DNA of 64,000 nucleotides from Lentisphaeria bacterium UBA1732. Its GTDB lineage: Bacteria; Verrucomicrobiota; Lentisphaeria; Victivallales; UBA1829. Below the pieces are notes generated by a model. The model did no database searches and was not told the origin of the DNA. It was given only the letters and a program-made list of their open reading frames with translations. The stretch covers positions 1,522-65,521 of the forward strand of contig DCIG01000013.1 of assembly GCA_002315855.1 (NCBI GenBank), given 5' to 3'. This document shows, in pieces, positions 2,622 to 63,521 of the stretch; position 1 is the stretch's first letter; each line of letters starts with the position of its first letter. A program made the translations under genes and the position numbers.

Positions 2622-3326
2622 ATGGCAGACCGGATTAAAATTCTCAACTCACCATCGGTAAGACGTATGCCGTCTTATCTGCATAAACTTATGCTGATGC
2701 ACGCGGATGGGGAAAAGAATGCGTCCGCGACAAAACTTGCAGAGTACATGGATTTAGATACGATTATCGTGCGCAAGGACTTCGAGCTTACGGGAATCAC
2801 GGGGCGTCCGGGCGTAGGATATCGCACTGACGAGCTGATTGAGGCAATTCGCCGTTTTCTCGGCTGGGATATTGACTGCGATGCATGTCTGGTCGGTGCG
2901 GGGTCATTGGGAAGTGCCTTGCTGGGGTATGAAGAATTTGCAGAATACGGACTGAAAATCACCCACGTATTTGATGCCGATCCGAAGAAGATCGGGACCT
3001 ATATCCATGGGCATAAGGTATTGGATATACGGAGGCTGCATGATGAACTGAGCGGATGTGCTCCGGCAGTTGCGGTCATTTGTGTGCCGTCGCATTCTGC
3101 GCAGAATGTGGCAGATGAACTGGTGTCATGCGGGGTCAAAGCTTTCTGGAGCTTTGCCAACGTATGCCTGCAAGTTCCGGCGGACATCATCGTTCAGCGC
3201 GAAGTCATCGCGGGCGGGTTTGCCATGCTGTCCATGAAACTGACCCACCGCGGAATCAAAGGCAGTGCGGAAACTGGAGTTAATCCGGCAAATCCGGACG
3301 AAACGTCAGGGAATAAGAATTCTTAA
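2622..3326 (+). CDS. rex: Redox-sensing transcriptional repressor Rex
   Basis: The N-terminal winged helix (RRMPSYLHKL..., ATKLAEYMDLD) and the Rossmann motif LVGAGSLGSALL match the Rex family. An AAAGGA RBS lies 11 nt upstream. Confidence 0.9.
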   Translation: MADRIKILNSPSVRRMPSYLHKLMLMHADGEKNASATKLAEYMDLDTIIVRKDFELTGITGRPGVGYRTDELIEAIRRFLGWDIDCDACLVGAGSLGSALLGYEEFAEYGLKITHVFDADPKKIGTYIHGHKVLDIRRLHDELSGCAPAVAVICVPSHSAQNVADELVSCGVKAFWSFANVCLQVPADIIVQREVIAGGFAMLSMKLTHRGIKGSAETGVNPANPDETSGNKNS

Positions 3327-3359
3327 TGTCAGAGATGACACAAACATAACAAAATGAAT

Positions 3360-3378
3360 CGATTATTTCAAATAATCG
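3360..3378. promoter_or_regulatory. Perfect 9-1-9 palindrome, candidate operator in front of the hydrogenase operon
   Basis: CGATTATTT-C-AAATAATCG ends 22 nt before the hydC ATG. It does not match the canonical Rex box TTGTGAA-N4-TTCACAA. Confidence 0.35.
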
Positions 3379-3400
3379 GTTCCAAAGAAAGGTAAAAACC

Positions 3401-3916
3401 ATGTGTTGCCAAAAGTTGTCGGAAGGAGCGGCGGCAAAATTCGCTGAGCTCGACGCTTTTATTGACAGTCTGGGAATTGACTGCAATGACGAGCGCCGGC
3501 GCGGACGCCTGATCCAGGTCCTCCATCGTGCGCAGAAGATTTTCGGCTATCTGCCGCGTGAAGTTCAGATCCATGTTGCACAGAAGCTCTTCCTCTCGGA
3601 AGCAGCCGTCTCCGGCGTTGTCAGCTTCTACAACTATTTCACTACAGAACCCAAAGGCAAGTACGTCGTGGATGTGTGCCTCGGTACAGCCTGCTACGTC
3701 AAGGGGTCCGAAAAAGTTCTTTCCGAAATCGAACGCGTTCTCGGCGTCAAGGCCGACACGAATCCGACGCCGGATGGACTGTTCTCCATTTCCGCACTCC
3801 GCTGCGTGGGTGCCTGCGGTCTTGCACCGGTAATGATGGTAAACGGCAAAGTTTACGGCAAAGTTACCCCTGCGAAGGCAGTTGAAATCATTAACGAATA
3901 CAAAAAGTTGGGCTGA
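3401..3916 (+). CDS. hydC: [FeFe]-hydrogenase gamma subunit, NuoE-like thioredoxin-fold [2Fe-2S] protein
   Basis: CLGTACYVKG and LRCVGACGLAPVMMVNG are the NuoE/HndA cysteine motifs. The stop lies 2 nt before the hydB ATG. Confidence 0.85.
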   Translation: MCCQKLSEGAAAKFAELDAFIDSLGIDCNDERRRGRLIQVLHRAQKIFGYLPREVQIHVAQKLFLSEAAVSGVVSFYNYFTTEPKGKYVVDVCLGTACYVKGSEKVLSEIERVLGVKADTNPTPDGLFSISALRCVGACGLAPVMMVNGKVYGKVTPAKAVEIINEYKKLG

Positions 3917-3918
3917 TC

Positions 3919-5850
3919 ATGGACAAGATTCTTTCTCAGGCCGCACTGCTGGACGTATTTAACGCCAGCAAAGGCAAGCTGGCACTTCGCTGCATCGCCG
4001 AACATGACATCAACTCCGCCAAAAAGGAAATTCTGTGCTGCGGCGGTACCGGATGCCATGCCTCCAATTCACAAGAGCTGATGGACAATCTTCGCGCCGC
4101 CATCAAAGAAAACGGTCTTGAAAATGACGTGAAAGTCATCCAGACCGGCTGCTTCGGTTTCTGCGCTCAGGGACCGATTGTCAAGGTCATGCCGGACAAT
4201 GTGTTCTATGTTCAGGTTACGCCGGCCGACGCCCGCGAAATCGTGGAAAAGCACATTGTGGGCAAGCAGATTGTGGAACGTCTGCTCTATGTCGAACCGA
4301 TGCTGAAAGAACGCATTCACGACTATGCCAAGATGTCCTTCTATGCCAAGCAGATGCGTATTGCACTGCGCAACTGCGGCATGATCAATCCGGAAGACAT
4401 CACTGAATACATCGCCGCAAACGGCTATCAGGCTCTTGCCAAGTGCTTGTTCCAGATGAATCCGGAACAGGTCGTTCAGGAAGTGTTGAACTCCGGTATC
4501 TGCGGACGCGGTGGTGCAGGATTCCCCACCGGTATGAAATGGAAAATCGCAGCCAGTACCAAAGCTGATGAAAAATACATCGTGTGCAACGCCGACGAAG
4601 GCGACCCCGGTGCATTCATGGACCGCTCCATCATGGAAGGCGACCCCAACAGCATCATCGAAGCCATGGCAATCGGTGCCTATGCAATCGGCGCACAGCA
4701 TGGTCTGGTCTACATCCGCGCAGAATATCCGCTGGCGGTGAGCCGTCTCCAGATGGCCATCGATCAGGCTCGCGAATACGGTCTGCTCGGCAAGAACATC
4801 ATGGGCAGCAATTTCTGCTTCGACATTGAAATCAAGCTCGGTGCAGGCGCATTCGTCTGCGGCGAAGAAACCGCCCTCATCCACTCCATGGAAGGTATGC
4901 GCGGCGAACCCACCACCAAGCCTCCGTTCCCCGCGAACGTCGGCGGCGGTTACTGGGGATGCTCCACCAACGTGAACAACGTTGAAACCTACGCATCCAT
5001 CCCGGTTATCATCCTCAACGGCGCACCGTGGTATGCCAAGATCGGCAACTGGAAGCCGGAACTCGATGCCAACGGCAACTTCGTGAAGACTGTCAGCGGC
5101 AACGCCGGTACCAAGGTGTTTGCACTCGCCGGTCAGATCAACAACGTCGGTCTGGTCGAAGTCCCGATGGGCACCACGCTCCGTGAAATCATCTACGAAA
5201 TCGGCGGAGGCATCTCCGGCGGTTATGAATTCAAGGCCGTGCAGACCGGCGGTCCGTCCGGCGGCTGCATCACCAAGGAAAACCTGGACACCCCGATTGA
5301 CTATCTCAACCTCGGCAAGATCGGTTCCATGATGGGTTCCGGCGGTATGATTGTTCTTTCCAACAAGGACTGTATGCCCGCCATGGCCAAGTTCTACCTC
5401 GACTTCACCAAGGATGAATCCTGCGGCAAATGCACTCCGTGCCGTATCGGTACCCGCCGTATGCTGGAAATGCTGGAAAAAATCTGCGACGGCACCGCCG
5501 ATGAAAGCACTTTGAACAAGCTGGAAAATCTCGCCAACACCATCCGCGACACCGCTCTCTGCGGTCTCGGTCAGACGGCTCCGAACCCGATTCTCAGCAC
5601 ACTCCGCTACTTCAAAGACGAATATCTCGCACACGTGCGCGACAAAAAGTGCCCCGCCGGCACCTGCCGCAAGCTGTTCAAACTGACCATCACCGACACC
5701 TGCATCGGCTGCACCAAGTGCAAACGCAACTGCCCGGTCGGCGCAATCAGCGGCGAAATCAAACAGAAACATGTCATCGATCAGACCAAGTGCATCAAGT
5801 GCGGTGCTTGTATTGATGGCTGCCCGAAGAAAGCAATCGTCAAAGAGTGA
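3919..5850 (+). CDS. hydB: [FeFe]-hydrogenase beta subunit, NuoF-like NAD(P)H/FMN-binding protein
   Basis: Contains an N-terminal [2Fe-2S] (CCGGTGCHAS...CFGFCAQGP), GRGGAGFPTG, ESCGKCTPCR, and two C-terminal ferredoxin motifs (CIGCTKCKRNCP, CIKCGACIDGCP). Confidence 0.9.
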   Translation: MDKILSQAALLDVFNASKGKLALRCIAEHDINSAKKEILCCGGTGCHASNSQELMDNLRAAIKENGLENDVKVIQTGCFGFCAQGPIVKVMPDNVFYVQVTPADAREIVEKHIVGKQIVERLLYVEPMLKERIHDYAKMSFYAKQMRIALRNCGMINPEDITEYIAANGYQALAKCLFQMNPEQVVQEVLNSGICGRGGAGFPTGMKWKIAASTKADEKYIVCNADEGDPGAFMDRSIMEGDPNSIIEAMAIGAYAIGAQHGLVYIRAEYPLAVSRLQMAIDQAREYGLLGKNIMGSNFCFDIEIKLGAGAFVCGEETALIHSMEGMRGEPTTKPPFPANVGGGYWGCSTNVNNVETYASIPVIILNGAPWYAKIGNWKPELDANGNFVKTVSGNAGTKVFALAGQINNVGLVEVPMGTTLREIIYEIGGGISGGYEFKAVQTGGPSGGCITKENLDTPIDYLNLGKIGSMMGSGGMIVLSNKDCMPAMAKFYLDFTKDESCGKCTPCRIGTRRMLEMLEKICDGTADESTLNKLENLANTIRDTALCGLGQTAPNPILSTLRYFKDEYLAHVRDKKCPAGTCRKLFKLTITDTCIGCTKCKRNCPVGAISGEIKQKHVIDQTKCIKCGACIDGCPKKAIVKE

Positions 5851-12355: not shown

Positions 12356-14293
12356 TTATTCGATTGGAGTAAAATGGAAAACAAAACCACCGCGTCCGAG
12401 CATGGAAGCCTTTATGACTTCTCCGGCTTTGGCTGTTCCTTTTGAAATTTCAAACGATGTGCGGTTTTCACCATCCCCGATTTTTTCGTAGGAAAACGAT
12501 TCACCGCGTCTGCCGGGAACTCTGAACTCAAAGTCGCGCTTGTCGTCTTTGCCGTTGATGCCGCCGACATACCAGTCTGTTCCCTTGCGGCGTCCCAGAA
12601 TGGCAGAATCGCCGGGTTCGCCGCCAAGATATTTCGTATCATCCCATGCGGTCGGCAAATGACGCAGGAACTGTTTCACCGGGTCCGGCAGGGAACGGAA
12701 TGAAGACGGACGGTCCGCCATGTGCTGCGCCGCAGACTCAAAAAGGACAGGCAGTGCCAGTTCATGAGCGTGAGAAGTGGTGTGCTTATGCTGGGAATCC
12801 GTAAACGCCGTGGGCGTATAATCCATGGAACCGACCACGTTGCGAATGAAAGGAAGCGTAGTATTGTGCGATGCGCCGTTTTCGGTCATGTAACCATGAT
12901 TATTGTACATTTCCGCGCCGTACACAGCCTCCATGGACATCAGATTCGGCCAGGTGCGCGCCCAGCCGCGCGGCAGAGTGCATCCGTGGAAATCAACAAG
13001 GACTTTATGCGCGGCGGCGTCTTTCAGAATGTCGATGTAATACTGCATCATATCCTGCTTGTCTCCGCCGAAGAAATCGATTTTCACCCCTTTCACGCCT
13101 TTGGAGTTCAGCCATGCAAATTCTTTTTCGCGGGCTTCATGCGTGATGAAACGATCGCGCGGACCGCCCATGACACCGGTATGATTCCCGCCGGAATTGT
13201 ACCACAGCCACACGCCGACATTCTTTTCTTTCGCATACGCCAAAGCATCGTCGATGTTTCCGCCATTGCCCATGACATCCCATTCCCAGTCAATCAGGAC
13301 ATTCGGCCATCCCATATCGGCAGCAAGGTCGATGTAGTCTTTAACGACCTTGAAATCACGGCTTCCATTGTTGTATGCCCAGTAAACCCATGCCGCCATG
13401 CCCGGCTGAATCCATGAGACATCGTCAATCGCGCATTCCGGAGCCAAATCATCCACGAGGGTGGATTCGACGACATCCGCCAGAGTACCGATGACAGCAC
13501 ACCGCCACGGAGACTTCCACGGCAGAACCGTTACAGGATTGACAGCACCGTGCCCGTTGCTTTCGCCTCGGTCGGGATAAATCGTGTGGAAAATACCTTT
13601 TTCACCCTCCACCGTGCGCAGGAGACATCCGCAGTAAGTCCCATCGAAGCCCGTTTCCGTAACAAGTCCCCAGATGTTTTTATCCGCAGAATGGAAGAAA
13701 ACGGGATATTCCTTGGTATTGCCACCCAAATCAGAGCTGCCGTATTCATGATAGATTTCTTCATAGCCGAGTTCACGCTTCTGAACACGGAAACGGTCGG
13801 TCTCCCGGAAAATATATGCCGTGTTTTCTCCCTGAAATTCGATTTTTTCATTCAGGGTGCCATTGATTTCATAACGAAACGCAAATGAATCGCGTCCAGC
13901 CCGAACTGACACACTGATTTGCTTCCCCTGTTCTCCGGAAAATACAAGAGTCCGTTCGTTCATATTCAGCCCGCACGCAGAACGCTTTCCGCTGACGGCC
14001 TTGTAACTGTCCACGACATGGCGAACAGAGCCGCTTGATGACAGTGTGAGCTTCGAAAAATCATAGTCCGCCAAGCTGGATTTCAGTCCAAGTTTCACAC
14101 GGAAAACTTCTTCACCGCTGCGTTTTACGAGCAGTGTATTGCCTTGATCCAGAAACACGCGAATCGTTCCCGGAACATCAGGCGATGTAACAATGTGCTC
14201 CGCGGAAAAAACAAAACCGGACACAACAGTGAATACAATACAGGCAAAAAGCCGTTTTGAAAAAAGATGATTCATCATCGTTGAATTTCCCAT
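12356..14293 (-). CDS. Glycoside hydrolase family 97 (alpha-glucosidase/alpha-galactosidase-like), secreted
   Basis: The core KGVKIDFFGGDKQDMMQYYIDILKDAAAHKVLVDFHGCTLPRGWARTWPNLMSMEAVYGAE resembles the SusB-type GH97 catalytic barrel. An N-terminal signal/anchor is present. Confidence 0.75.
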   Translation of the reverse strand: MGNSTMMNHLFSKRLFACIVFTVVSGFVFSAEHIVTSPDVPGTIRVFLDQGNTLLVKRSGEEVFRVKLGLKSSLADYDFSKLTLSSSGSVRHVVDSYKAVSGKRSACGLNMNERTLVFSGEQGKQISVSVRAGRDSFAFRYEINGTLNEKIEFQGENTAYIFRETDRFRVQKRELGYEEIYHEYGSSDLGGNTKEYPVFFHSADKNIWGLVTETGFDGTYCGCLLRTVEGEKGIFHTIYPDRGESNGHGAVNPVTVLPWKSPWRCAVIGTLADVVESTLVDDLAPECAIDDVSWIQPGMAAWVYWAYNNGSRDFKVVKDYIDLAADMGWPNVLIDWEWDVMGNGGNIDDALAYAKEKNVGVWLWYNSGGNHTGVMGGPRDRFITHEAREKEFAWLNSKGVKGVKIDFFGGDKQDMMQYYIDILKDAAAHKVLVDFHGCTLPRGWARTWPNLMSMEAVYGAEMYNNHGYMTENGASHNTTLPFIRNVVGSMDYTPTAFTDSQHKHTTSHAHELALPVLFESAAQHMADRPSSFRSLPDPVKQFLRHLPTAWDDTKYLGGEPGDSAILGRRKGTDWYVGGINGKDDKRDFEFRVPGRRGESFSYEKIGDGENRTSFEISKGTAKAGEVIKASMLGRGGFVFHFTPIE

Positions 14294-14329
14294 GTTTTAA
14301 TTGCTTTCTTACGTAAAGCTGAAGATGAT

Positions 14330-14490
14330 TTCAAAGTTCCCGTCCGGACTTTGGAACTAACTCTAAATATAGCTTTATTTTCAGGTTTTTCAAGGAAACA
14401 CAAACGGTTATTTTTTTGTTAAATCAAGGTTTCTGACGACAACAGCATCGAAAGCACTTTTTTGCGGATTCCGACTTTTGAAATCAGCTC
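14330..14490 (+). repeat. Divergent third copy of the conserved intergenic element (see 50214 and 56000)
   Basis: It starts TTCAAAGTTCC and ends GACAAC...ATTCCGAC-TTTTGAAATCAGCTC. Its length (161 nt) matches copies A and B, but the central part is not conserved. Confidence 0.35.
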
Positions 14491-14812
14491 AAGAATCATA
14501 TCGGACGGACGTTTGGAAATGATGTAAAAATGATTTCACGTAAAGTGAAAGAGTACAGGATGATTTTTTCATCCATTCTTTTGAATTATTTATCCATTTA
14601 TTATTTTATCTTGATGCGTTACATTAATATAGAGAGGATACCTCTATGGATTCGGAATATAAAGTATTTTTTATGGATGTACAAAACCGGACTTTGTACA
14701 GACAAATAAAGACAGGATTCCCAATTAACAGAGGTTCTCTGAAGTCAAAAAAGCTTTCAAAACATTTTCTCCAAAACATTTACCGTTCATCTTTATTCAC
14801 AATGAGGCAGCC

Positions 14813-15784
14813 ATGAAAACGAATCATCTTTCCCATGAAAAAGAAGTCCGATCAAGAATCACACGCTATACTCTGGTCGAATTACTTGTTGTGATTTCCG
14901 TCATTGCAATTCTTGCATCGCTTTTAGTGCCGATTCTTGCCGGTGCCAGAAGATCTGCAAGGCTTGCACAGTGTACCGCCAACGGCAAACAGTTCGGTCA
15001 GCTGAATATGGTGTATACCCAAGGAAACGACGGCTACGAAGTGCCGATTATCAATGAATCCCATCTTTCCGTGTGGCAGCCGCTTCTGTGGAATCAGTCG
15101 GCAGTCAATGCTCAAATGCCTGTGCCGACCGGAACCGATGTTGAAGGCGGCACAAAAGCTCCATGGGTACAGGCAGTCAAAAGCTCCAATATTTTCCTCT
15201 GCCCCGCAGATGATGATGCTGTTTCCGCGCAGCCCAAACTCGCCGGAAAAAGCTCGGATGCAGACCTCTTCCCGAAAACATCCTACGCATTCAATGCGAC
15301 AATCGTTGATGATGACGGTATTACAGGATCTCGTACCACTTGGAATAATGTCAAAAACAGACTGACTCACTTTGACAGACCGTCGATGATGATTCTCGTA
15401 ACAGATACAGCAATGCTGACCAAAGAACGCCCCAAAGACGGTTATCTTTTCAGCAATGAAAAAGTATTGGACGATCTGAGACCCGGCAGTATCATCAACC
15501 CGTGGGACCAGTGCTGCCTGCATCATGTTCCTAATGGTTCTGAATCGGATTATAATTTATCAAAACCCGATAAAAAGAAAATGACACCGCCATGGCATAC
15601 AGGAAAAACAATGAACTACACGTTCCTGGACGGACATGTTTCCAACTGGCAGCCCATGAAAACCATTATGGTCCGCAAATCCGGCAGCTATGACACCAAC
15701 CACGAAATCCGCGATGATGCAACGGTCTCTTATAAACGCGGAACATCTTACGGCATGTGGATCAACAGCATGAAGACACCCTGA
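14813..15784 (+). CDS. Prepilin-type N-terminal cleavage/methylation domain protein, HX9DG family
   Basis: The N-terminal YTLVELLVVISVIAILASLLVP pseudopilin motif is present, with a C-terminal H-x10-DGH motif (HTGKTMNYTFLDGH). Confidence 0.85.
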   Translation: MKTNHLSHEKEVRSRITRYTLVELLVVISVIAILASLLVPILAGARRSARLAQCTANGKQFGQLNMVYTQGNDGYEVPIINESHLSVWQPLLWNQSAVNAQMPVPTGTDVEGGTKAPWVQAVKSSNIFLCPADDDAVSAQPKLAGKSSDADLFPKTSYAFNATIVDDDGITGSRTTWNNVKNRLTHFDRPSMMILVTDTAMLTKERPKDGYLFSNEKVLDDLRPGSIINPWDQCCLHHVPNGSESDYNLSKPDKKKMTPPWHTGKTMNYTFLDGHVSNWQPMKTIMVRKSGSYDTNHEIRDDATVSYKRGTSYGMWINSMKTP

Positions 15785-54582: not shown

Positions 54583-55935
54583 TTACTTCTTTTCTCCATG
54601 ATTCTTGGCTTCAGGAGGATTCGACTGCATCGCACTGGGACGGCGGACGCATGGTTCGCTTGTGCCGTTCAGATTGTGGCGGTGTTTCGGAATCACGGTC
54701 AGCCATTCATCTTTTTTGCCCAAATCGACCACATAGTAGTTTTTCGCATCTTCATTGCGGTCGTAGCCGATGGCCGTCCCTGCCGGAATCATATTGTGCT
54801 TGTCGATGATGGCATTCCGGATGCGGCAATGTTCCCCGATATCCACGTCGGACAGCAGAATCGAGTTATGCACCGACGCATAGCTGTGGACGCATACCTT
54901 GTTGAACAGTACCGAGTTCGTTACCACGCTGCCCGACACGATGCACCCGTCGCACACGATGGAGTTGATTGCCTTCCCGATTCGTGCATACCCGGTTGCA
55001 TCCACATCTTCGTTGTGGATGAATTTCGCCGGCGGCAGACTGTAATGATAGTTGATGATTGGCCATTTTTCGTTGTACAGATCCAGCTGCGGCGACACGG
55101 AACGCAAGTCCATGTTTGCCTCGAAATAGGCCTTCAGAGTACCGACATCCCGCCAGTACGGCTTGACTTTCGGGTCTTGTCCGGGAATTACGTTCGTATA
55201 GAAATTGTACGCATACAGGCGGTCCGTATGCACCAGCGACGGAATAATGTCTTTCCCGAAGTCATGACTGCTCTGTTTCGCGCTGTGGTCGTTCTTCAGC
55301 AGGCTCAGAATATCGTTCGCATCGAAGATATAGTTGCCCATGGAGGCGAGACACATGGTCGGATCATTCGGCAGGGGCGTAGGCTCTTTCGGTTTCTCCT
55401 GGAATCCGACGATTTTCCAGTTTTCGTCCACTTGCACAATCCCGAACTGACTCGCTTCCTCTATCGGCACTGGAATACATGCCACCGTTGCGATTGCATT
55501 GTTTGCCGTATGGAAATCCACCATCTGACTGATGTCCATGCGGTAAATATGGTCTGCTCCGAACACTGCCACAAGGTCGGGACGGAAGTCTTCAATCAGG
55601 TTCGCGTTCTGATAGATTGCATCTGCGGTCCCCTGATACCATTCCCGTTCCTGCGTCTGCATCTGAGCTGGCACAGGCACGATGAAGTGCCCTCTCTGCA
55701 TCGGGTTCGCGGTATTCCACCCGTTGATGATATGTTCAACCAGACTTTGGGATTTGAATTGTGTCAGTACGAAGATACTGTCAATCCCGCTGTTGACGAA
55801 ATTGCTTAAAACAAAGTCGATGATGCGGTATTTCCCGCCGAACGGTACTGCCGGTTTCGCACGTTGGTCAGTCAACGGTGCAAGACGGGTTCCCTCACCG
55901 CCGGCCAAAATCATTCCGAGTACGGAAGCTCTCAT
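54583..55935 (-). CDS. glgC: Glucose-1-phosphate adenylyltransferase
   Basis: N-terminal ILAGGEGTRLAPLTDQRAKPAVPFGGKYRIIDF and a left-handed beta-helix C-terminal domain. A GAGGTG RBS is present. Confidence 0.93.
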   Translation of the reverse strand: MRASVLGMILAGGEGTRLAPLTDQRAKPAVPFGGKYRIIDFVLSNFVNSGIDSIFVLTQFKSQSLVEHIINGWNTANPMQRGHFIVPVPAQMQTQEREWYQGTADAIYQNANLIEDFRPDLVAVFGADHIYRMDISQMVDFHTANNAIATVACIPVPIEEASQFGIVQVDENWKIVGFQEKPKEPTPLPNDPTMCLASMGNYIFDANDILSLLKNDHSAKQSSHDFGKDIIPSLVHTDRLYAYNFYTNVIPGQDPKVKPYWRDVGTLKAYFEANMDLRSVSPQLDLYNEKWPIINYHYSLPPAKFIHNEDVDATGYARIGKAINSIVCDGCIVSGSVVTNSVLFNKVCVHSYASVHNSILLSDVDIGEHCRIRNAIIDKHNMIPAGTAIGYDRNEDAKNYYVVDLGKKDEWLTVIPKHRHNLNGTSEPCVRRPSAMQSNPPEAKNHGEKK

Positions 55936-55999
55936 AAATACACCTCGCTGGTTAAAATGTTTTCATGATTAAATTGTTTTTAATTTTCTTCTTGCTCCT

Positions 56000-56156
56000 G
56001 AACTGATCTCGAAAGTTATTGACGGAATTTTTTGAAAATGTTTCTTCGCGCAGTTGTCGGGAGTAGTTTGAGGTGGCGGCTGAGACAGTAACCGCCCAAA
56101 ACGCTCTCATGACAGATGACAAAGAGAATTTCAAATATCCCGGCAGAACTTTTGAA
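56000..56156 (-). repeat. Conserved noncoding element, copy B (glgC leader)
   Basis: See copy A. It has the same blocks in the same order and the same length, and ends 64 nt upstream of the glgC ATG. Confidence 0.6.
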
Positions 56157-56184
56157 ATTAGCTTCTTAAAAGAAGATCCACTAA

Positions 56185-56213
56185 ACAATAACATCCTTGT
56201 CTCTATTTTTCAA
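56185..56213 (-). promoter_or_regulatory. Candidate sigma-70-like promoter of glgC, upstream of element B
   Basis: On the minus strand: TTGAAA (56213-56208), 17 nt, TATTGT (56190-56185). Confidence 0.35.
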
Positions 56214-56270
56214 GAGCACGATGTGGAAATTTTTCGTTTTTGTATGCTCCGTTTTTGGGACTGCGGCACC

Positions 56271-58160
56271 TCACAGCCCAGGAACAGTCATTTGTTCGGC
56301 TTTCTTTACCCACATCGCATTTTCAAACAGCCCTGCCGCAAAAACATTTGCGTTCTGGTAACGCGAATTAAGCACAAACAAATCATACCCGTTGAACAAA
56401 AACAGATACGGTGTTTCCTCGTGAATCAGACGGTGGAACTGATGATAAAGCTCATTCCGTTTCTTCGGGTCGAAACACTGCCGGATTTCCATGATCAGCC
56501 TGTCGGCCTCCGCATTGTTGAACGAAATATAGTTGCTGGATGCTTCCTGCTTCAGTCCGTCCGAATGCCACAGCTGATACGGGTCAGGGTCGGATATGCT
56601 CATCCTCCATGCCAGAATCACCGCATCAAACTGTTTTTTGTCCACGCGTTCCAGCATGACGGACCATTCCAGTGCCAGAATCTCCATTTTCACGCCCGCT
56701 TTCGCCATGTCTTCCTTGATGATGGGAAGCATTTTCGCATAACTCTCTGCGGTATTCGGATAAATCACCGTAAATTGCAGAGGCCGCCCGTCCAAATCCA
56801 GAACGCCGTCCCCGTTCGTATCCTTCCACCCCGCCTCGCTCAACAGCTTTTTTGCAGTTTCGATACTGTACGGATAAGGCTCGATGCTCTCGTCGTATGC
56901 CGGTGAATTGATGTAGAATGGTCCTGATACCGGTCGCGCCAGATCATGCAGGATGTCATGGATAATCCGCTTGCGGTCCACCAGATGGCTCAGTGCCTGC
57001 CGCGTCCGCTTGTCCTGAAACACCGGATTCGTCTGATTCAGCCCGATATGGCTGTACGAGAAACTCGGCAGTTTGAGCTTTTTCAGGAATCCCGTCTTTT
57101 CGTCGAATTCCGGCGTATCCGTGCGCGTCATCCATTGTTCCGCCGTCAGCGAATCCGCGTCTATATCCTTTGATTTCAGTGCTTGCAGCCGCGTATTCGG
57201 GTGCTGAATCAGGTCAAACACCATGTATTTGATGGACGGCATGAATCCCTGTGTCCGCCCGTAGTATTTTTCAAATCTGCGGAAAATCACTCGTTTCCCC
57301 TTTTCCCATTTCTCGAACTGATACGGCCCGCATCCCACAATCATCCGGTTGCGCTCATTGTCGTCGTTGAATTTCGCACCGTCGAACTCGCCCTCGTAGT
57401 CGTAGTAGAAATGTTTCGGCAGCGGCTGAAGTCCCAGCGTGATTTCCCGCGAAAGCATGTACGGCTTCGTCCATATCACATCAAATTCGTAGTCGTTTTT
57501 CACCTCGATACGGTCAATGTCCGCCAGATACGACCTCAACGGCACCGCATCCACTTTCTCATTCTTCACCACGTCCACGAAAAATTTGAAATCCGTAGCC
57601 GTTACTTCCACATTTTTCCATTCTTTTTTTGTAACCGGATCGGTGAAATCATGCCACAGTATCCCTTTCCGCAGTTTGATATGATAGACCAGCTGATCCT
57701 CCGAAACACTCCATGACTCCGCCATTTTCGGCACAAACTCGTCCAGATTCTTCAGATTCCGTTCCGCCAGCGAATCGTAGGTGATTCCCCAGAAATCCGA
57801 CACTGTCGCATCGTTGTTCAGGAGCATGTTCATGTTGCCTGTATCGGACGAAATCGCCTTGATGTAGCGTCCCCCCGCGTCCGCATTCGCATCGAAAAAT
57901 TCTGCATTGCCGGGCTTCACGTCCCCTGTGGATTCTGTATGCTGCGCCGCACCGCTTCCGGCGATGGATAATCCCGTCATCCCGATACCGGTGATGTTCA
58001 CGCTGTCCAGTTTTTCGCTGATTTCCGCCAGTCTCTTTTCCAGATTCTCTGTGTGATAGCGCAGCTGATCGAATGCTGTTACCAGCGAATACCCGAAGAA
58101 CACGATTGCCAGAAAACACAGCACCAGCAGTGTTGTGATCATTGGATTTTTATTGGACAT
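56271..58160 (-). CDS. ABC-transporter substrate-binding protein, family 5 (peptide/oligosaccharide-type), membrane-anchored
   Basis: The SBP_bac_5-like core is present, with an N-terminal TM anchor MITTLLVLCFLAIVFFGY. The ATG at 58160 has a GGAAAGGTG RBS. Confidence 0.8.
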   Translation of the reverse strand: MSNKNPMITTLLVLCFLAIVFFGYSLVTAFDQLRYHTENLEKRLAEISEKLDSVNITGIGMTGLSIAGSGAAQHTESTGDVKPGNAEFFDANADAGGRYIKAISSDTGNMNMLLNNDATVSDFWGITYDSLAERNLKNLDEFVPKMAESWSVSEDQLVYHIKLRKGILWHDFTDPVTKKEWKNVEVTATDFKFFVDVVKNEKVDAVPLRSYLADIDRIEVKNDYEFDVIWTKPYMLSREITLGLQPLPKHFYYDYEGEFDGAKFNDDNERNRMIVGCGPYQFEKWEKGKRVIFRRFEKYYGRTQGFMPSIKYMVFDLIQHPNTRLQALKSKDIDADSLTAEQWMTRTDTPEFDEKTGFLKKLKLPSFSYSHIGLNQTNPVFQDKRTRQALSHLVDRKRIIHDILHDLARPVSGPFYINSPAYDESIEPYPYSIETAKKLLSEAGWKDTNGDGVLDLDGRPLQFTVIYPNTAESYAKMLPIIKEDMAKAGVKMEILALEWSVMLERVDKKQFDAVILAWRMSISDPDPYQLWHSDGLKQEASSNYISFNNAEADRLIMEIRQCFDPKKRNELYHQFHRLIHEETPYLFLFNGYDLFVLNSRYQNANVFAAGLFENAMWVKKAEQMTVPGL

Positions 58161-58195
58161 AAAACACCTTTCCAAAATTAGGATTGCTCCTCATC

Positions 58196-59068
58196 TTATG
58201 CTTGAATAACCTCATCAAATAGTACTTTTCCCTTGTAGTCAATTACAAAAAAGAGTGAAGTATTCAGTGTTGCCACAAAACCGTTTTGAAAAATTATCTG
58301 TTCATTTCTGAATATCTCTTTTTGTTCGGAAAGCTCACGAAATGAATTATAATCAATACCTCTCCAGCAATGAGACGAGATACTGTTTAGTTTGAAAATA
58401 TTCATTTTGATTAACTGCTTGAAATTCTCAGCAGTAAAATTTCTTGCATTATTGTATCGTAAACCATTTTTACGGACATAATCTTTATAGGTTGAATACT
58501 TGTCGTTTTTTTTGAAAAGAAGACCGAAACAAACAAATCTTTTTTGATATTCCTCATCAAAAAATGACTTGCAGTCTTTATAGGACTCCAGCATCGGATA
58601 ATTTAAGTATAGTTTTCCTCTTTTTAGATTCGTTTCATCACAGAAAAAATCAAGCATTTCGTTCAATTCTGCACTGTTTCTCTTTACAATGGAAATGATA
58701 TTTTGATCTGTTAATTCATTCCGTTTTTCACAGACAGTGGTATGATGAATTTCACAGTCGAAAAAAAGATAAATGGAAGAAAATTGCTTTTTCTCAAGAA
58801 TATTCAAATATTCTTGGATTTTCTCAATTTCTTTTTTTCGCGTTTTCCCCTGTCTATCAAATAAATTCAGCGTTTTTTGATAACTCTCTCTTAAAACAGA
58901 TACAATGTCTAAAAAGCCATTGTCCTCTTTCAATAAAACATAAAGTTTGTGAATATTAAAGCCCACGATGGACATTTCACAGCTGATTTGAAATCGTGAT
59001 GTGAGAGAACTCAAAAAAATGGAATCAGCCTCGCCTTCTACTATGAACAATATGGAATCCTTTCTCAT
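58196..59068 (-). CDS. TOPRIM-like protein (RloB/AbiLii- or DUF4435/AriB-like), partner of the upstream ATPase
   Basis: N-terminal ILFIVEGEADSIF and a later acidic cluster IYLFFDCEIHH. The start overlaps the ATPase stop (ATGA). Confidence 0.5.
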   Translation of the reverse strand: MRKDSILFIVEGEADSIFLSSLTSRFQISCEMSIVGFNIHKLYVLLKEDNGFLDIVSVLRESYQKTLNLFDRQGKTRKKEIEKIQEYLNILEKKQFSSIYLFFDCEIHHTTVCEKRNELTDQNIISIVKRNSAELNEMLDFFCDETNLKRGKLYLNYPMLESYKDCKSFFDEEYQKRFVCFGLLFKKNDKYSTYKDYVRKNGLRYNNARNFTAENFKQLIKMNIFKLNSISSHCWRGIDYNSFRELSEQKEIFRNEQIIFQNGFVATLNTSLFFVIDYKGKVLFDEVIQA

Positions 59069-60174
59069 TCCGAAAATGCTCCATTCACATACAGAGTTTC
59101 CAGATTGTGTGCTTCTCTCAATTCCCGTTCTGTCGAGTTTTTAAGGCATTTAATTGCTTTTTTAGTTATTAGAAAGCAACAGTCCGGTCTCGTAAATTGA
59201 TTTTGCATCAAATACGTGTCATGAGTCGTCAAAATTGTCTGAATCTCGCTGTTCCCGTTAAGCAGTTTTACAACTTCTTTTGCCGCTTCATAATGATAAA
59301 AAGCGTCAAATTCATCAATAAACATGAAAGACAAATTATCTTTTCCAACTACAGAATACCAATAAAACAATAACCATAATGCCCGTGTCCCCGCTGATGC
59401 AATAAAACTGAAGATTGCTTTATTTTTCCGCTTGTCAAAATACGCATACAATGTATGGCATCCGTTATTTACCTCAAAATCCAAATCGTATGGCAAATCA
59501 AATTTCTTCAAAAAGGATTGAAAATCTTTTAGCTTTTCACTTTTGAATAATGCTTCGTCTAAAATCTCTCCACCGTTTTTTAAGCCGCAATAAGTGTTTC
59601 CATCGGATGAAGAACGAAACCATAGCATCCCATTGCAGAAATTCATCAACTCCGTCAGAATAGGCGAAGTCCCGCTTGGTGTGTTGTTATAAATATACTT
59701 GATGACAGAGAGTTTATTGTCTGGTAAAGACACATTCAAAGTCCCTTTGAGTGTGTCATCCACAAATTGTTTTTCCGAATTCCTGTAATCATAGTCAATA
59801 AGTACCTTCCTCCCGACTTTTATCTTCTCATACAGTAACTCCATACTTCTGCTTTTTCCGTATGAATAGGTTACTTCTCCGCACGAAAACGAAAAAGTAT
59901 AAGTAAATGATACTTCCTCTTTTGATTCATTTAAATTACTATAATATTCTAAAAATTTTTCAGATAATTTTTGTTTATCCGTTAAGTGTTGAACAATATC
60001 GAAGATTGCAAGACCTAATGACGTTTTTCCGCTTCCGTTTTTTCCATAAATCAAAGCCTTGTTGACAATATCGTCTTTGACCAATTCCTGATTAAAAGAA
60101 TAATCAGACGCAGTTAAGTCAAACGTTAAGTCCTTAAAACATTTGAAATTTTTGACTCTGATTTTCTTCAGCAT
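59065..60174 (-). CDS. ABC/SMC-type AAA ATPase (AAA_15/AAA_21-like; OLD/AbiLi/AriA-like)
   Basis: Walker A GKNGSGKTS at about aa 45. Walker B/D-loop region FMFIDEFDAFYH and H-loop-like LTTHD near the C-terminus. A GGAGAA RBS is present. Confidence 0.75.
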   Translation of the reverse strand: MLKKIRVKNFKCFKDLTFDLTASDYSFNQELVKDDIVNKALIYGKNGSGKTSLGLAIFDIVQHLTDKQKLSEKFLEYYSNLNESKEEVSFTYTFSFSCGEVTYSYGKSRSMELLYEKIKVGRKVLIDYDYRNSEKQFVDDTLKGTLNVSLPDNKLSVIKYIYNNTPSGTSPILTELMNFCNGMLWFRSSSDGNTYCGLKNGGEILDEALFKSEKLKDFQSFLKKFDLPYDLDFEVNNGCHTLYAYFDKRKNKAIFSFIASAGTRALWLLFYWYSVVGKDNLSFMFIDEFDAFYHYEAAKEVVKLLNGNSEIQTILTTHDTYLMQNQFTRPDCCFLITKKAIKCLKNSTERELREAHNLETLYVNGAFSE

Positions 60175-60474
60175 GATTGTTCTCCATTGGTCCCTTTTAT
60201 GGTTGTGTTGTAGTGAATAAGCATATTTTCTAAAAATAACCGAAACATAATAACTGTATGTACCATGTTCCCCCCGTTATTGTTTCGTTTATCTCCATTA
60301 TTATAGCATAGTACACAGCCTTTTTCAAACTTATTCCCCAAAAAACAATAAAAATTGTCTTTCTCCTCCATTTTTTCCGTTTAATTCATCCTTTCAAGTT
60401 GATTATCACGCCGTTTATGCTATCTTACATTATATCCATTTTGAAATTCTTCTCCTGAAAAAACGGTATATCCC

Positions 60475-61308
60475 ATGGAAAAATTATCCTCTGCCTCCCC
60501 CTGCTGCGGTTGCGAATCTCAGCCGCTTTCTGCTCCCGCCCCTGACCAAAGCGCGGAAACGCCTGTTTCTTCCTCATCCTCAATCACTCCGCTCCCGAAA
60601 TACTGCATTCTCAGCGGCAGCATGATGAAACTCATTGCCGTCATCACCATGACGATTGACCATATCGGTTACTACATCATGCGTTATTATGACCAATGTT
60701 TCGTTTCTTTTTTCAAAATCGGCTCTTACGACTTCACTGCCTACTATCTTTCCCGCACCATCGGACGCATTGCCTTCCCCATTTTCTGCTTCCTGATTAC
60801 GGAGGGTTTCCTGCACACCCGCAACCGCCTCCGCTACGGCTTCCGGCTTCTCCTTTTCGCTCTGGCCTCCGAAATCCCTTTCCACTTGGCCGCCAATGCC
60901 AAGCTCTATGAAAACGATAGTCATAACGTCTTTTTCACACTCTTTTTAGGTTATTTGGGCCTTTGTGCCGTGGAATATTTCCGCCGTAAAAAATCTCTTC
61001 AGATTGTCTCCGTCGTTCTCCTGTTCCTGATTGCCGGTCATGCAAACTGCGATTACATGCACCAGGGCTTCTGCTTCATTCTGCTCATGTATTATCTGCG
61101 CTCCTGCCGCATTGTGCAGGCCGTTGCCGGCAGCGCACTCCTGCCCAATCCTCTGGGTGTCCTCCTTGCCTTTATCCCCATCAATCTTTACAACGGCAAA
61201 CGCGGCTTCATTCAGCACCCCGTTCTGCAATATCTCTTCTATCTGTTTTATCCCGTTCACCTCCTCATTATCTACTACTTCGCACATTACAGTCTTCACC
61301 TCATCTGA
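60475..61308 (+). CDS. traX: TraX-family membrane protein
   Basis: MKLIAVITMTIDHIGYY and a multi-TM body. The first ~50 aa (Ser/Pro/Cys-rich) may not be translated; an alternative ATG lies at 60622. Confidence 0.7.
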   Translation: MEKLSSASPCCGCESQPLSAPAPDQSAETPVSSSSSITPLPKYCILSGSMMKLIAVITMTIDHIGYYIMRYYDQCFVSFFKIGSYDFTAYYLSRTIGRIAFPIFCFLITEGFLHTRNRLRYGFRLLLFALASEIPFHLAANAKLYENDSHNVFFTLFLGYLGLCAVEYFRRKKSLQIVSVVLLFLIAGHANCDYMHQGFCFILLMYYLRSCRIVQAVAGSALLPNPLGVLLAFIPINLYNGKRGFIQHPVLQYLFYLFYPVHLLIIYYFAHYSLHLI

Positions 61309-61328
61309 ACTCACCGCAAGCACATCCC

Positions 61329-63521
61329 ATGCACTCGAAATCTCTTGTTCTTTCCGTTCTCCTGTTTGCCGGGGCATTCGCTCCGTGCGTTCTGTCTGCT
61401 TCCGACTTGAAACTCTACGAAAACACCCCCGGCTCCTCATGGGAATCTGAGTTTTACCCCGTCGGAAACGGCACGCTCGGTGCCATGACCAATGGCGGCA
61501 TCGAACGCGATGAACTCCAGCTCAACATTGATTCCCTTTGGACTGGTGATGACTGCCCCGACGGCAATTACGACAAAATGGGGAGCTACCAGAATTTCGG
61601 CAGTCTCTTCGTCCGGTTTGAAAACATGTCCGATGTTTCGGACTACCGCCGCGAACTCGATTTGGAAGAGGCCGTCATTGAAACCGAAATGAACGTCAAT
61701 CGCCTCAAACACGAGCGCAAACTCTTCATCAGTGCCCCCGACAAAGTTCTCTGCTACACGGTCGAATCCGAACAGAAGGTTTCCGGTTCCGTTTCATTCG
61801 CTCCTGCACAGCGCGGCTGTCAGATCACCGCTGCCCGGGATATGCTCACCATCAGTGGCAAAATTCCCGGAAACAATCTTCAATACCGCGGTCTTCTCCT
61901 CCTCACGGGCGATGGCGCAATCTCCTCGGAGGACAATCAAATCGTTTTCCGCAACTGCAAAAATCTCCGTCTTCTGTTTACCGCAGACACAGATTACGCC
62001 CTCTCTGCCGCCTCAAATTTCCGCAATCCCGCCAAACTTGCCGCCCTCGACTCCATCCTGAATCACGCGTCCGCCCGTTCCGATGATGAACTGGAGGAAC
62101 GCCACAAAAAAGATTATGCCCGCTATTTCGACCGCGTCGAATTTGAGCTGGAAAACCACGATGCCGATCTCCCGACCTCCAAACGCATTGCCAATGCGAA
62201 ACAGGGCAGATTCGATACTGTGCTCCCCGTTTTGATGTTCCAGTATGGACGGTATCTGCTGATTTCCAGCAGCCGCCCCGGCTCGCTCCCTGCCAACTTG
62301 CAGGGTATTTGGAACAACTCGAACAATCCCGCCTGGCACAGCGACTATCACACAAACATCAACATCCAGATGAATTACTGGGGTGCCGAACCTGCCAATC
62401 TTCCCGAAATGCACCGGCCGCTCTTCGATTTCCTCCGCGAAAGCATTCCCGCCGCCTCTGCCGCCGTCAAACGTGAATTTCCCGGCAATGACGGCTTTGC
62501 TTTCCGCACCAGCATGAATCCTTTCGGCGGCATGGGCTGGAAATGGAACTGGCCTGGCGCCGCCTGGCTGGCGATGCACATGCACCTGCACTGGCAATAC
62601 ACCGCTGACCTCGATTTCCTGAAAAATGAAGCATATCCCTACTATCAGGGCTGCGCTCGTTTTTGGGTCAAGTACCTGAAAACGCGCCCCGATGGCACGG
62701 TTGTCGTCCCGAATGGATGGTCGCCGGAACACGGCCCCGCCGAGGATGGCATCGCTCACGATCAGCAGATTGTCGCCGAGTTCTTCGATGCCTTCCTCTC
62801 TGCCTCGCACACCCTCAATATTCAGGACGAACTCGTTTCTCAGGTCGCCCGCCTTCGCAAAAAACTGCTCGGCCACAAAATCGGCAAATGGGGTCAGCTT
62901 CAGGAATGGGAAACCGACCGCGATGTCAAAGGCGATGAACACCGCCACACCTCGCATCTCTACGCCGTTTACCCCGGCTCATCCATCAATGCCGTGGAAA
63001 CTCCTGACTTCTTCCGCGCCGCCCGTGTCGCTTTGGAAGGCCGCACGCTGACCGGAGACTCCCGCCGTTCCTGGACGTGGCCTTGGCGTACTGCTTTGTG
63101 GGCTCGGTTCCGCGATGGCGTGAAAGCGCAGGAAATGATTCGCGGCTTGCTTCAGTTCAATACGCTTTCAAATCTTTTCACCAATCATCCGCCGTTCCAG
63201 ATGGACGGCAATTTCGGCTTCACGGGTGCGCTTTGCGAACTCTTCCTCCAGTGTCCCGGTGATGAAATCCACATCATGCCATGCTCTTTGCCGCAGGAAT
63301 GGAGTAAAGGCTCTCTCCGCGGTCTTTGTGCGAAAGGTGCTGTCACGGTGGATATTGATTGGGAAAATGGCAGCCCCTCAGAAGTTGTCCTTTCATCGAA
63401 AAAAAGCGCTTCCGTCAAGGTCGTTTTCCCCTCGAAAATGACTTATGGCGGACAGTCCTCCTCCGAATTTTCTCTGACCCTCCAACCCGGTACCCGCTAT
63501 CAGTTCAAAAATGCTCGTTGA
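61329..63521 (+). CDS. Glycoside hydrolase family 95, second paralogue, secreted
   Basis: SWESEFYPVGNGTLGAMTNGG...LQLNIDSLWTG and the GH95 core are present, with a signal peptide. Confidence 0.85.
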   Translation: MHSKSLVLSVLLFAGAFAPCVLSASDLKLYENTPGSSWESEFYPVGNGTLGAMTNGGIERDELQLNIDSLWTGDDCPDGNYDKMGSYQNFGSLFVRFENMSDVSDYRRELDLEEAVIETEMNVNRLKHERKLFISAPDKVLCYTVESEQKVSGSVSFAPAQRGCQITAARDMLTISGKIPGNNLQYRGLLLLTGDGAISSEDNQIVFRNCKNLRLLFTADTDYALSAASNFRNPAKLAALDSILNHASARSDDELEERHKKDYARYFDRVEFELENHDADLPTSKRIANAKQGRFDTVLPVLMFQYGRYLLISSSRPGSLPANLQGIWNNSNNPAWHSDYHTNINIQMNYWGAEPANLPEMHRPLFDFLRESIPAASAAVKREFPGNDGFAFRTSMNPFGGMGWKWNWPGAAWLAMHMHLHWQYTADLDFLKNEAYPYYQGCARFWVKYLKTRPDGTVVVPNGWSPEHGPAEDGIAHDQQIVAEFFDAFLSASHTLNIQDELVSQVARLRKKLLGHKIGKWGQLQEWETDRDVKGDEHRHTSHLYAVYPGSSINAVETPDFFRAARVALEGRTLTGDSRRSWTWPWRTALWARFRDGVKAQEMIRGLLQFNTLSNLFTNHPPFQMDGNFGFTGALCELFLQCPGDEIHIMPCSLPQEWSKGSLRGLCAKGAVTVDIDWENGSPSEVVLSSKKSASVKVVFPSKMTYGGQSSSEFSLTLQPGTRYQFKNAR

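Follow-up and report, generated by a model that had tools for sequence, protein, structure and literature searches.

A low-GC islet in a Lentisphaeria genome carries a PDC-M12 gene pair, a candidate defense module of an ABC ATPase and a putative Toprim-type nuclease

A stretch of 64,000 nucleotides from Lentisphaeria bacterium UBA1732 (contig DCIG01000013.1), here called the window, contains a 2.3-kb AT-rich islet that carries two intact minus-strand genes, termed A (369 amino acids) and B (290 amino acids). Profile matches identify the pair as a full member of PDC-M12, a candidate defense family catalogued in PADLOC and distantly related to the lactococcal system AbiL. The name stands for phage defense candidate, multi-gene number 12. 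The source genes of the 145 PDCs of PADLOC lie within BREX, DISARM or type I restriction-modification (RM) loci (Payne et al., bioRxiv 10.1101/2024.01.29.577857), and because the models have this origin, a candidate defense role is the leading function for the pair. The reading that we favor, and consider reasonably probable, is that the islet is a horizontally acquired PDC-M12 operon, in which an AbiL-related ABC ATPase and a coupled Toprim-type nuclease would act in abortive defense.

Protein A aligns through residues 1-368 with positions 1-368 of the 369 in the PDC-M12A model of PADLOC (PDLC04426, E = 5.1e-116). The PADLOC model for AbiLi (PDLC02335) is matched at 6.3e-40, over model positions 49-281 of 326 only. 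Among Pfam families, AAA_21 (8.7e-19), AAA_15 (1.2e-11), SMC_N, and AAA_23 score above their cutoffs. A first-pass annotation, made by a model from the DNA letters without database searches, had read the Walker A, Walker B/D-loop, and LTTHD motifs of A as the layout of an ABC/SMC-type ATPase; these motifs are present (Table 1) and are kept in homologs. In an alignment of 15 homologs that share 35-65% identity, the invariant residues include Walker A G44-K-N-G-x-G-K50, S260-x-G-T263, D287-E-F-D290, and H318. The same alignment contains a C-terminal block in which RPDC (329-332) is accompanied by RE[L/I]R[E/K][A/G]HN[L/I]E, with E351, R353, H356, N357, and E359 invariant. Searched against solved structures, a profile of A matches the retron Ec83 ATPase best (9.9e-06), then SMC heads, AriA (a weak match to entries 8ux9 and 8v45, E = 0.028), PtuA, and Rad50. 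The aligned part is the signature/Walker B region, except in Rad50, where it is the P-loop region near the N terminus. As a single sequence, A has no match in the PDB. By its motifs and profile matches, A is an intact ABC/SMC-clade ATPase without a close structure.

Protein B matches the PDC-M12B model of PADLOC (PDLC04430) at 6.7e-37, with residues 1-288 placed on model positions 6-247 of 251, and three more B models match as well. A word-indexed search with B returned 24 relatives only, the nearest being 38-40% identical. An exhaustive profile search with a cutoff of E<=1e-3 produced 1,873 representative clusters (defined at the 50% identity level), most with proteins of ~250 amino acids; 745 clusters reach E<=1e-30. 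PDC-M12B is matched by 129 of 129 sampled relatives. The B protein of the window is at most 41% identical to any other B found, and it belongs to a "long-B" subclade of 285-301 amino acids, compared with ~250, that has two insertions at approximately residues 63-95 and 107-125. By these searches, it is a divergent long member of a large family.

Across the 129 representatives, G12, D104, G151, and P158 of B are invariant, and E11, F103, N156, Y157, M159, Y194, K195, K226, and T270 are conserved in at least 90%. In the closer relatives, the motifs follow the pattern VEG...E, FDxD, GKLYLNYPMLES, YK, K, and NT. The first-pass annotation had proposed E11, E13, and D15, together with the acidic cluster FFDCE, as residues of a Toprim-type nuclease. 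The motifs are present, and E11 and D104 are conserved, but E13 is not; at the position of D15, the closer relatives have a near-invariant Glu. E106 holds the second acidic position of the DxD motif, where Asp is near-invariant (>=90%) in the 24 closer relatives and the window protein has Glu; this position lies outside the >=90% columns of the 129-member alignment. Residues ~110-290, in which the annotation could place nothing, turn out to carry the family-wide motifs GKLYxNYPMxES, YK, K226, and NT, and the extra length of the protein corresponds to the two long-B insertions. The suggestion of a new variant likewise gives way to membership in a known family, since both genes are full-length members of PDC-M12, with its ~1,900 clusters at 50% identity.

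Links from the B family to Toprim proteins appear at the level of the family. Pfam RloB (PF13707) is matched by 37 of the 129 relatives (E<=0.01, best 6.7e-08), and PADLOC AbiLii by 28 of the 129 (E<=1e-3, best 9.5e-08). The RloB alignments that were inspected place family residues ~5-105 on RloB positions 2-91 of 195, which correspond to the core from beta1-Glu to beta3-DxD. Because these alignments cover the N-terminal half only and all of those inspected fall below the gathering score, the profiles define the B family as a sister of RloB/AbiLii that has the N-terminal Toprim core alone in common with them and whose C-terminal half is family-specific.

AlphaFold2 models of B are confident, with a mean predicted local distance difference test score (pLDDT) of 92.0 and a predicted template-modeling score (pTM) of 0.90 for the window protein, and a pLDDT of 94.3 for the compact member P0008. 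The window model has a strand at residues 5-10, a helix, a strand at 31-36, a helix, two inserted helices, a strand at 98-104, a helix, and a strand at 152-157. In this predicted beta-alpha-beta topology, E11 and D104-x-E106 fall where strands 1 and 3 reach their C-terminal ends, the placement expected for the Toprim fold. In a search of the PDB with the family profile, the only match is the Toprim protein 1t6t (E = 0.042), weakly aligned at both motifs; B as a single sequence has no match in the PDB, and its comparison with NCBIfam gave nothing useful. Foldseek ranked the OLD entry 6njv second (E = 0.09, template-modeling (TM) score 0.21-0.28), as the only nuclease among the top matches, and topoisomerase II-beta appeared at E = 0.09-0.3. 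A 2026 FEMS review gives 6njv as a structural match of AbiLii (PMC13064643). Because of the family-level hidden Markov model (HMM) links, together with the conservation of motifs and topology, B is likely to be a Toprim-like metal-dependent nuclease.

The two genes are consistently found together. In every context examined, an ATPase of ~370 amino acids directly precedes B, and the reading frames overlap. An open reading frame (ORF) of the B family adjoins and overlaps A in 61 of 64 family loci, and each of the five partner ATPases checked from other loci matches PDC-M12A. A and B diverge in parallel: identities of A/B to the window pair are 64/41, 63/38, 62/38, 54/35, 39/27, 36/30, 35/26, and 36/27%, with B always the lower value. 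The ATGA overlap of the window genes, reported in the first-pass annotation along with the two ORFs, was confirmed at the same coordinates.

The PDC-M12 pair is mobile cargo. It is the sole cargo of mobilizable ColE1/Rop plasmids of Escherichia that are only 4.0-4.4 kb in length, and it is carried by filamentous Vibrio phages (inoviruses, Tubulavirales) and on 51 IMG/VR contigs. In one locus (L120) the pair resides beside a tyrosine integrase, and in another (L128) beside an rve transposase accompanied by Bro-N, RhuM, and Macro genes. When A was used for a tblastn search of plasmids, only PDC-M12 loci and one uninformative Vibrio match were found. In eight of nine loci, the window counted, the pair has a higher A+T content than the sequence on either side of it.

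The islet itself is foreign in composition. In a 300-nt sliding window, the G+C content (GC) is 0.29-0.36 over ~58150-60400, compared with ~0.46-0.59 on either side. A and B combined have a GC of 0.33 and form the lowest-GC stretch of the entire 64 kb, whereas GlgC (0.52), the solute-binding protein (SBP) gene (0.50), TraX (0.50), and GH95 (0.55) are richer. Third codon positions deviate in the same way: their GC (GC3) is 0.365 in A and 0.316 in B, versus 0.62-0.65 in these four neighbors. The first-pass estimate of ~32% for the islet thus agrees with the measured value, but its 55-57% for the neighbors was too high. The conclusion that the islet was horizontally acquired is supported by this composition and by the mobility of the family elsewhere; it does not draw on an empty site. 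Scanning genome contigs with the SBP protein yielded 33 loci with an SBP ortholog or paralog (32 related species) of at most 57% identity, with no TraX, GH95, or GlgC nearby, and scanning metagenomes with TraX yielded 80 loci of at most 48% identity, with no synteny. Comparison of the TraX-SBP junction among relatives therefore left the acquisition that the annotation had proposed with its compositional argument but without an empty site.

Exact-protein look-ups of B, GH95, SBP, and a variant of A found occupied loci only, and every contig of the same species carries the islet. Two sister-strain contigs of ~99% identity have the same order, TraX, A-B-SBP-orf80-GlgC, with nucleotide identities of 99.9% for A, 99.1% for B, and 98.1-99.6% for the flanks. 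The islet predates the split of these strains. Between the window and one sister contig (L186, 3448-4320), B has five nonsynonymous changes (V44G, T66K, R199C, W235R, and Q261K), none of which is in a conserved column, and three synonymous changes. SBP and GlgC together have 2 nonsynonymous and 19 synonymous changes between the sister strains (Fisher p = 0.008 versus B), and A has a single change in 1106 nt, which is nonsynonymous. The nonsynonymous excess in B fits either diversifying selection or, equally, relaxed constraint.

A palindrome of 17 bp, CCGTA-N7-TACGG, is located upstream of A in 58 of 64 loci (<=1 mismatch), and in 27 of 31 loci after A was collapsed to clusters below 90% identity. 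Its background frequency (18 matches in 1.91 Mb) corresponds to 0.12 expected occurrences in 31 upstream segments (Poisson P ~5e-54). The half-sites are constant, and the N7 spacer is A/T-rich and variable. The palindrome usually ends ~46-87 nt before the A start codon, with a full range of 8-115 nt. In many loci it is positioned ~5-8 nt upstream of a -35-like element (TTGAC/TTGA); in other loci it is ~20-25 nt upstream of the motif TAnnTTTG, which we take to be the Bacteroidota -7 element. Examples are found at 7910-7926 of L129, 5900-5916 of L128, 1505-1521 of L120, 7006-7022 of L126, 4771-4787 of L127, and 2854-2870 of L124, and in most of L133-L182. Because this position is kept across hosts that have different promoter types, the palindrome is presumably bound by a protein that the module itself encodes. 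The element is thus a candidate operator that probably serves autoregulation. The family-level palindrome is what is new in this analysis; the PDC-M12 family itself was already catalogued.

The window copy is an exception, as the palindrome is absent from 60175-60474 at <=2 mismatches, and the single 3-mismatch site (60240-60256) is at chance level. Other exceptions are the chromosomal Lentisphaerae loci L130-L132, which are without the palindrome, the E. coli plasmid type, whose version has two mismatches, and one locus that is truncated at a contig end. Upstream of A in the window, the best promoter candidate has 11 of 12 consensus matches plus the TG of an extended -10 element, measured against a sigma-70 consensus that may not be that of Lentisphaerota. 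A 67-amino-acid ORF that gene callers annotate in this region was rejected as a third gene, because it has no counterpart in any relative and contains the promoter candidate; we read it as leader and promoter sequence.

Downstream, the distance of 35 nt from B to the SBP gene that the first-pass annotation had given is correct for a start at the ATG at 58160, and the SBP ORF has an alternative TTG start at 58175. The annotation had also supposed that this gene may now be read from the islet. Co-transcription of SBP with A and B by read-through is plausible, because no terminator-like hairpin separates B from SBP; a promoter-like site was also not found on the same strand in the last 600 nt of B.

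Comparison with known systems places the pair in a common design class. The window pair resembles other PDC-M12 pairs in the full-length matches of A and B, the gene order, orientation, and overlap, and the sporadic distribution associated with mobile genetic elements. It differs by its long B with two insertions, by a B identity of at most 41%, and by its lack of a promoter-adjacent palindrome. AbiL of Lactococcus lactis (AbiLi and AbiLii; RloA/RloB of type I RM loci) is likewise a two-gene operon, in which the gene for a Rad50/SMC-like ABC ATPase comes first and that for a Toprim-like protein second. Besides the match of A to AbiLi, a quarter to a third of the B family match AbiLii or RloB via the N-terminal Toprim core; window B has no such match, and the similarity is alignable only over the N-terminal half. 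An abortive-infection (Abi) phenotype has been shown experimentally for AbiL (PMC13064643), whereas PDC-M12 is a candidate family.

PARIS has the same design of an ABC ATPase and a separate Toprim effector, and it behaves like a toxin-antitoxin (TA) pair with an established mechanism: on sensing Ocr, AriA sets free AriB, which then cleaves tRNA-Lys (PMC13064643). Membership of the window pair in PARIS was rejected. AriB is a DUF4435 protein, and DUF4435 is matched neither by B (E<=1), nor by its 24 closer relatives (E<=1), nor by the 129 relatives (E<=0.01); the AriB structures in the PDB do not match B at E<=10. Also, A is ~100 amino acids shorter than AriA (464 amino acids). PADLOC models labeled "AriA" do match A, at 3.8e-21 and 4.9e-11, but these models of 304 and 373 positions appear to be generic domain models of the AAA_21/AAA_15 type, because in length and in matched range they follow Pfam AAA_21 (304) and AAA_15 (374). 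In the Vibrio phage records, the DefenseFinder-type tag of the depositors, "Paris_II__AAA_21", is on the ATPase only, and no complete PARIS system is flagged.

OLD nucleases and GajA of Gabija have the same domain pair, an ABC ATPase together with a Toprim domain that bears a Glu...DxD metal-binding motif, and have anti-phage roles. In those proteins a single fused polypeptide contains both domains, whereas here each domain has its own ORF, and the OLD and GajA Toprim regions have no significant sequence or Foldseek similarity to B (6njv was the best). HEC-01, an Hma-embedded candidate found through the same guilt-by-embedding logic, shares the two-gene architecture. It is a distinct family by HMM, with a marginal match of B to HEC-01B (E = 0.048). 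The earlier description of the pair as a split-OLD/PARIS/AbiL-like defense module is therefore apt for the design class but not for membership in PARIS.

According to the reading that we favor, A would be a catalytically competent ATPase that serves as sensor and as scaffold and that holds the nuclease B in check, by analogy with PARIS, OLD, and Gabija. B would be translationally coupled to A and would be a Toprim-type metal-dependent nuclease with a family-specific, helical C-terminal half. A trigger derived from a phage or other mobile element, or the loss of a labile partner, may free or activate B, which might then cut nucleic acid (tRNA or DNA) and thereby abort the infection. Such a pair could behave like a TA system, which would explain why it is the only cargo of tiny plasmids. 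In most family members the palindrome by the promoter is probably an autoregulatory operator; it would have been lost from the window copy, leaving a strong sigma-70-like promoter only, and the SBP gene is probably read through from the islet.

An extended form of this proposal is speculative, and we think it rather unlikely to hold in full. PDC-M12 would be a distinct, self-regulating, TA-like immune module of ATPase and nuclease, whose own product binds CCGTA-N7-TACGG beside varied promoters across phyla and phages. B would be a new nuclease architecture, made up of a minimal Toprim core and a C-terminal half without a detectable structural relative. In the window, the operator would have been lost, the module fixed, and its promoter made a constitutive promoter for the host peptide-transporter gene, while B would still be diversifying.

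Several observations weigh against the favored reading. The authors of the PDC models label all 145 as untested, and HEC-01, an ABC ATPase and TOPRIM pair from the same study, gave no protection against the phages tried (bioRxiv 10.1101/2024.01.29.577857). Our literature search found no paper that mentions PDC-M12. The islet is solitary and lies outside any defense island. There is no tRNA anywhere in the 64-kb window and no significant direct repeat or att repeat around the islet, the flanks examined contain neither an integrase nor a transposase, and the islet has no mobility gene; the first-pass annotation had reported the same absences. Moreover, in every strain sampled the islet is fixed and its divergence keeps pace with that of the flanks, and relaxed constraint could equally account for the nonsynonymous excess in B. 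As to the nuclease, the RloB gathering score of 31.5 bits is reached by none of the ten family members whose bit scores were inspected (best 28.3). The window B has no match to AbiLii or RloB at E<=1, no significant match to DUF4435 or OLD-like Toprim models, and a sub-threshold match to Pfam Toprim (E = 0.055; 14.1 bits versus a cutoff of 23.1). Foldseek searches of window B against the PDB and BFVD, and of P0008 against the PDB, gave nothing at E<0.05, and hhalign of the B family profile with P2 Old aligned the VEG motif at a non-significant probability of 0.5%. The HMM scans that the annotation had recommended thus bore out A, which matches AAA_21, AAA_15, PDC-M12A, and AbiLi, but for B they returned PDC-M12B and neither DUF4435, RloB, nor Toprim above cutoff. 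Its Toprim reading of B stands on motifs, topology, and family links, but window B fails these Pfam models, and the Foldseek comparison it had called for yielded a confident model with no significant neighbor.

The pair might instead be mainly a selfish addiction (TA) module that stabilizes its mobile carriers, with an anti-phage effect that is secondary or absent. The chromosomal copy would then be a stranded remnant, retained either because cells that still have B die when A is lost or because it now drives SBP. Presence as the only non-replication cargo of the small Escherichia plasmids, carriage by filamentous phages and many viral contigs, and a promoter-adjacent palindrome that resembles type II TA autoregulation are all compatible with such a role, as are the TA behavior of the related PARIS (PMC13064643), the lack of phage protection by HEC-01, and the solitary, fixed state of the islet. 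However, the family models were seeded by genes within BREX, DISARM, or RM loci, and AbiL, the closest named relative, has a demonstrated Abi phenotype. TA and defense functions are also not mutually exclusive, and this explanation, to which we assign a small but real chance, shifts the emphasis more than it offers a true alternative. A constitutive complex of the OLD/Gabija type, which would recognize and nick or degrade invading DNA in a non-abortive, restriction-like manner without B being a sequestered toxin, seems less probable still. Its domain content is that of a split OLD or GajA, no nuclease other than the OLD Toprim entry 6njv appears among the top Foldseek matches, and the SMC/Rad50-like heads nearest to A belong to DNA-binding ATPases. 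Nonetheless, significant similarity of sequence or fold to the OLD/GajA Toprim domains is lacking, A is short at 369 amino acids and does not have the long insertions of GajA or OLD, and the closest HMM links are to AbiL, which is reported to be abortive.

The islet could also be a decaying or domesticated remnant that has no current defense function and whose AT-rich promoter now drives the SBP transporter gene. The window copy is missing the family-wide palindrome, B has its nonsynonymous excess between sister strains, and the islet is fixed in every strain, and no terminator intervenes before SBP 35 nt away. The palindrome-less loci L130-L132 are also chromosomal Lentisphaerae insertions directly upstream of a co-directional host gene. 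Against decay, both ORFs are intact and have kept all of their conserved catalytic residues, the five amino acid changes in B all fall outside the conserved columns, and A is strongly constrained, with one change in 1106 nt. We regard this explanation as very improbable. The defense operon remains the reading that we prefer.

For this genome alone, the finding is ordinary: a single accessory module, standing by itself, whose design class was already known. For the family, it adds a chromosomal example from Lentisphaerota (Victivallales) to a widespread set of candidate defense loci, and it shows that the vehicles of PDC-M12 include tiny ColE1-type plasmids as well as inoviruses and numerous further viral contigs. 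The most useful leads for work on PDC-M12 and AbiL are the conserved operator-like palindrome and the B subunit, which evolves much faster than A and is a structural orphan whose predicted fold has no significant neighbor in the PDB.

Table 1. Coordinates in the window of the A-B islet, its motifs, and its immediate borders
Feature	Position	Strand	Basis or remark
Gene A, 369-aa ABC/SMC-clade ATPase (PDC-M12A, AbiLi-like)	59065..60174	-	PADLOC, Pfam, motifs
A, Walker A GKNGSGKT, aa 44-51	60022-60045	-	motif
A, signature-like SAGTR	59383-59397	-	motif
A, Walker B/D-loop FMFIDEFDAFYH, aa 283-294	59293-59328	-	motif
A, H-loop LTTHD, aa 315-319	59218-59232	-	motif
A, family-specific RPDC, aa 329-332	59179-59190	-	C-terminal motif
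A, family-specific RELREAHNLE	59098-59127	-	C-terminal motif
A/B stop-start overlap ATGA	59065..59068	-	operon, probable translational coupling
Gene B, 290-aa PDC-M12B protein, putative Toprim-type nuclease	58196..59068	-	PADLOC, conserved columns
B, beta1-Glu motif ILFIVEGEAD, aa 6-15	59024-59053	-	motif
B, DxE motif FFDCE, aa 102-106	58751-58765	-	motif
B, motif GKLYLNYPMLES	58583-58618	-	family-conserved
B, YK194-195	58484-58489	-	family-conserved
B, K226	58391-58393	-	family-conserved
B, NT269-270	58259-58264	-	family-conserved
A-TraX intergenic region, upstream end of islet	60175..60474	.	AT-rich, GC 0.33
Sigma-70-like promoter candidate TTGAAA-17-TGcTATAAT	60300..60328	-	~125 nt upstream of A ATG; best in scan
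67-aa ORF	60168-60371	-	annotated by gene callers; no counterpart in any relative; contains promoter candidate
Spacer from B stop to SBP ATG	58161..58195	-	35 nt; SBP ribosome-binding site GGAAAGG; no terminator-like hairpin
Host SBP_bac_5 solute-binding gene	56271..58160	-	directly downstream, same strand; Pfam SBP_bac_5 3.5e-78; GC3 0.64

Two other PDC-M12 loci have informative surroundings. In another Lentisphaerae species (L130-L132, 8001-10024), the pair is a low-GC insert (0.42 versus 0.51-0.55) among housekeeping genes, and a co-directional host gene for a heparinase II/III-like protein starts 0-57 nt after B, an arrangement that mirrors that of B and SBP in the window. In L124, a Logan contig from SRR6824195, the pair (2879-4850) is directly upstream of the gene series S13-S4-S11-RNA polymerase subunit D. 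This order, which is presumably the archaeal arrangement, suggests that PDC-M12 may also be present in archaea.

No Rfam family matches within 55500-61500. Beyond the 3' end of the window, ~8 kb from gene A, the parent contig EMG_10000343 encodes a 298-amino-acid XerC/D-like tyrosine recombinase (Phage_int_SAM_1 and Phage_integrase; L001, 308-1204). It adjoins ApbE and is probably a housekeeping protein unrelated to the islet. The TraX gene (60475-61308, plus strand; Pfam TraX 2.5e-34) is missed by public gene calls (JGI, Logan) on the same contigs, which place two to three short ORFs of 50-164 amino acids over it on the opposite strand; one sister-strain contig does have TraX called. Between SBP and GlgC, an ORF of 80 amino acids (55952-56194, minus strand) has no Pfam match, is 99% identical in the sister strains, and is a gene in public annotations. 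It lies in a second small low-GC patch (55900-56350; GC 0.36, GC3 0.43). The second-lowest GC stretch of the window, 14001-15500 (0.42 in a 1.5-kb sliding window), overlaps an ORF of 323 amino acids (14813-15784, plus strand).

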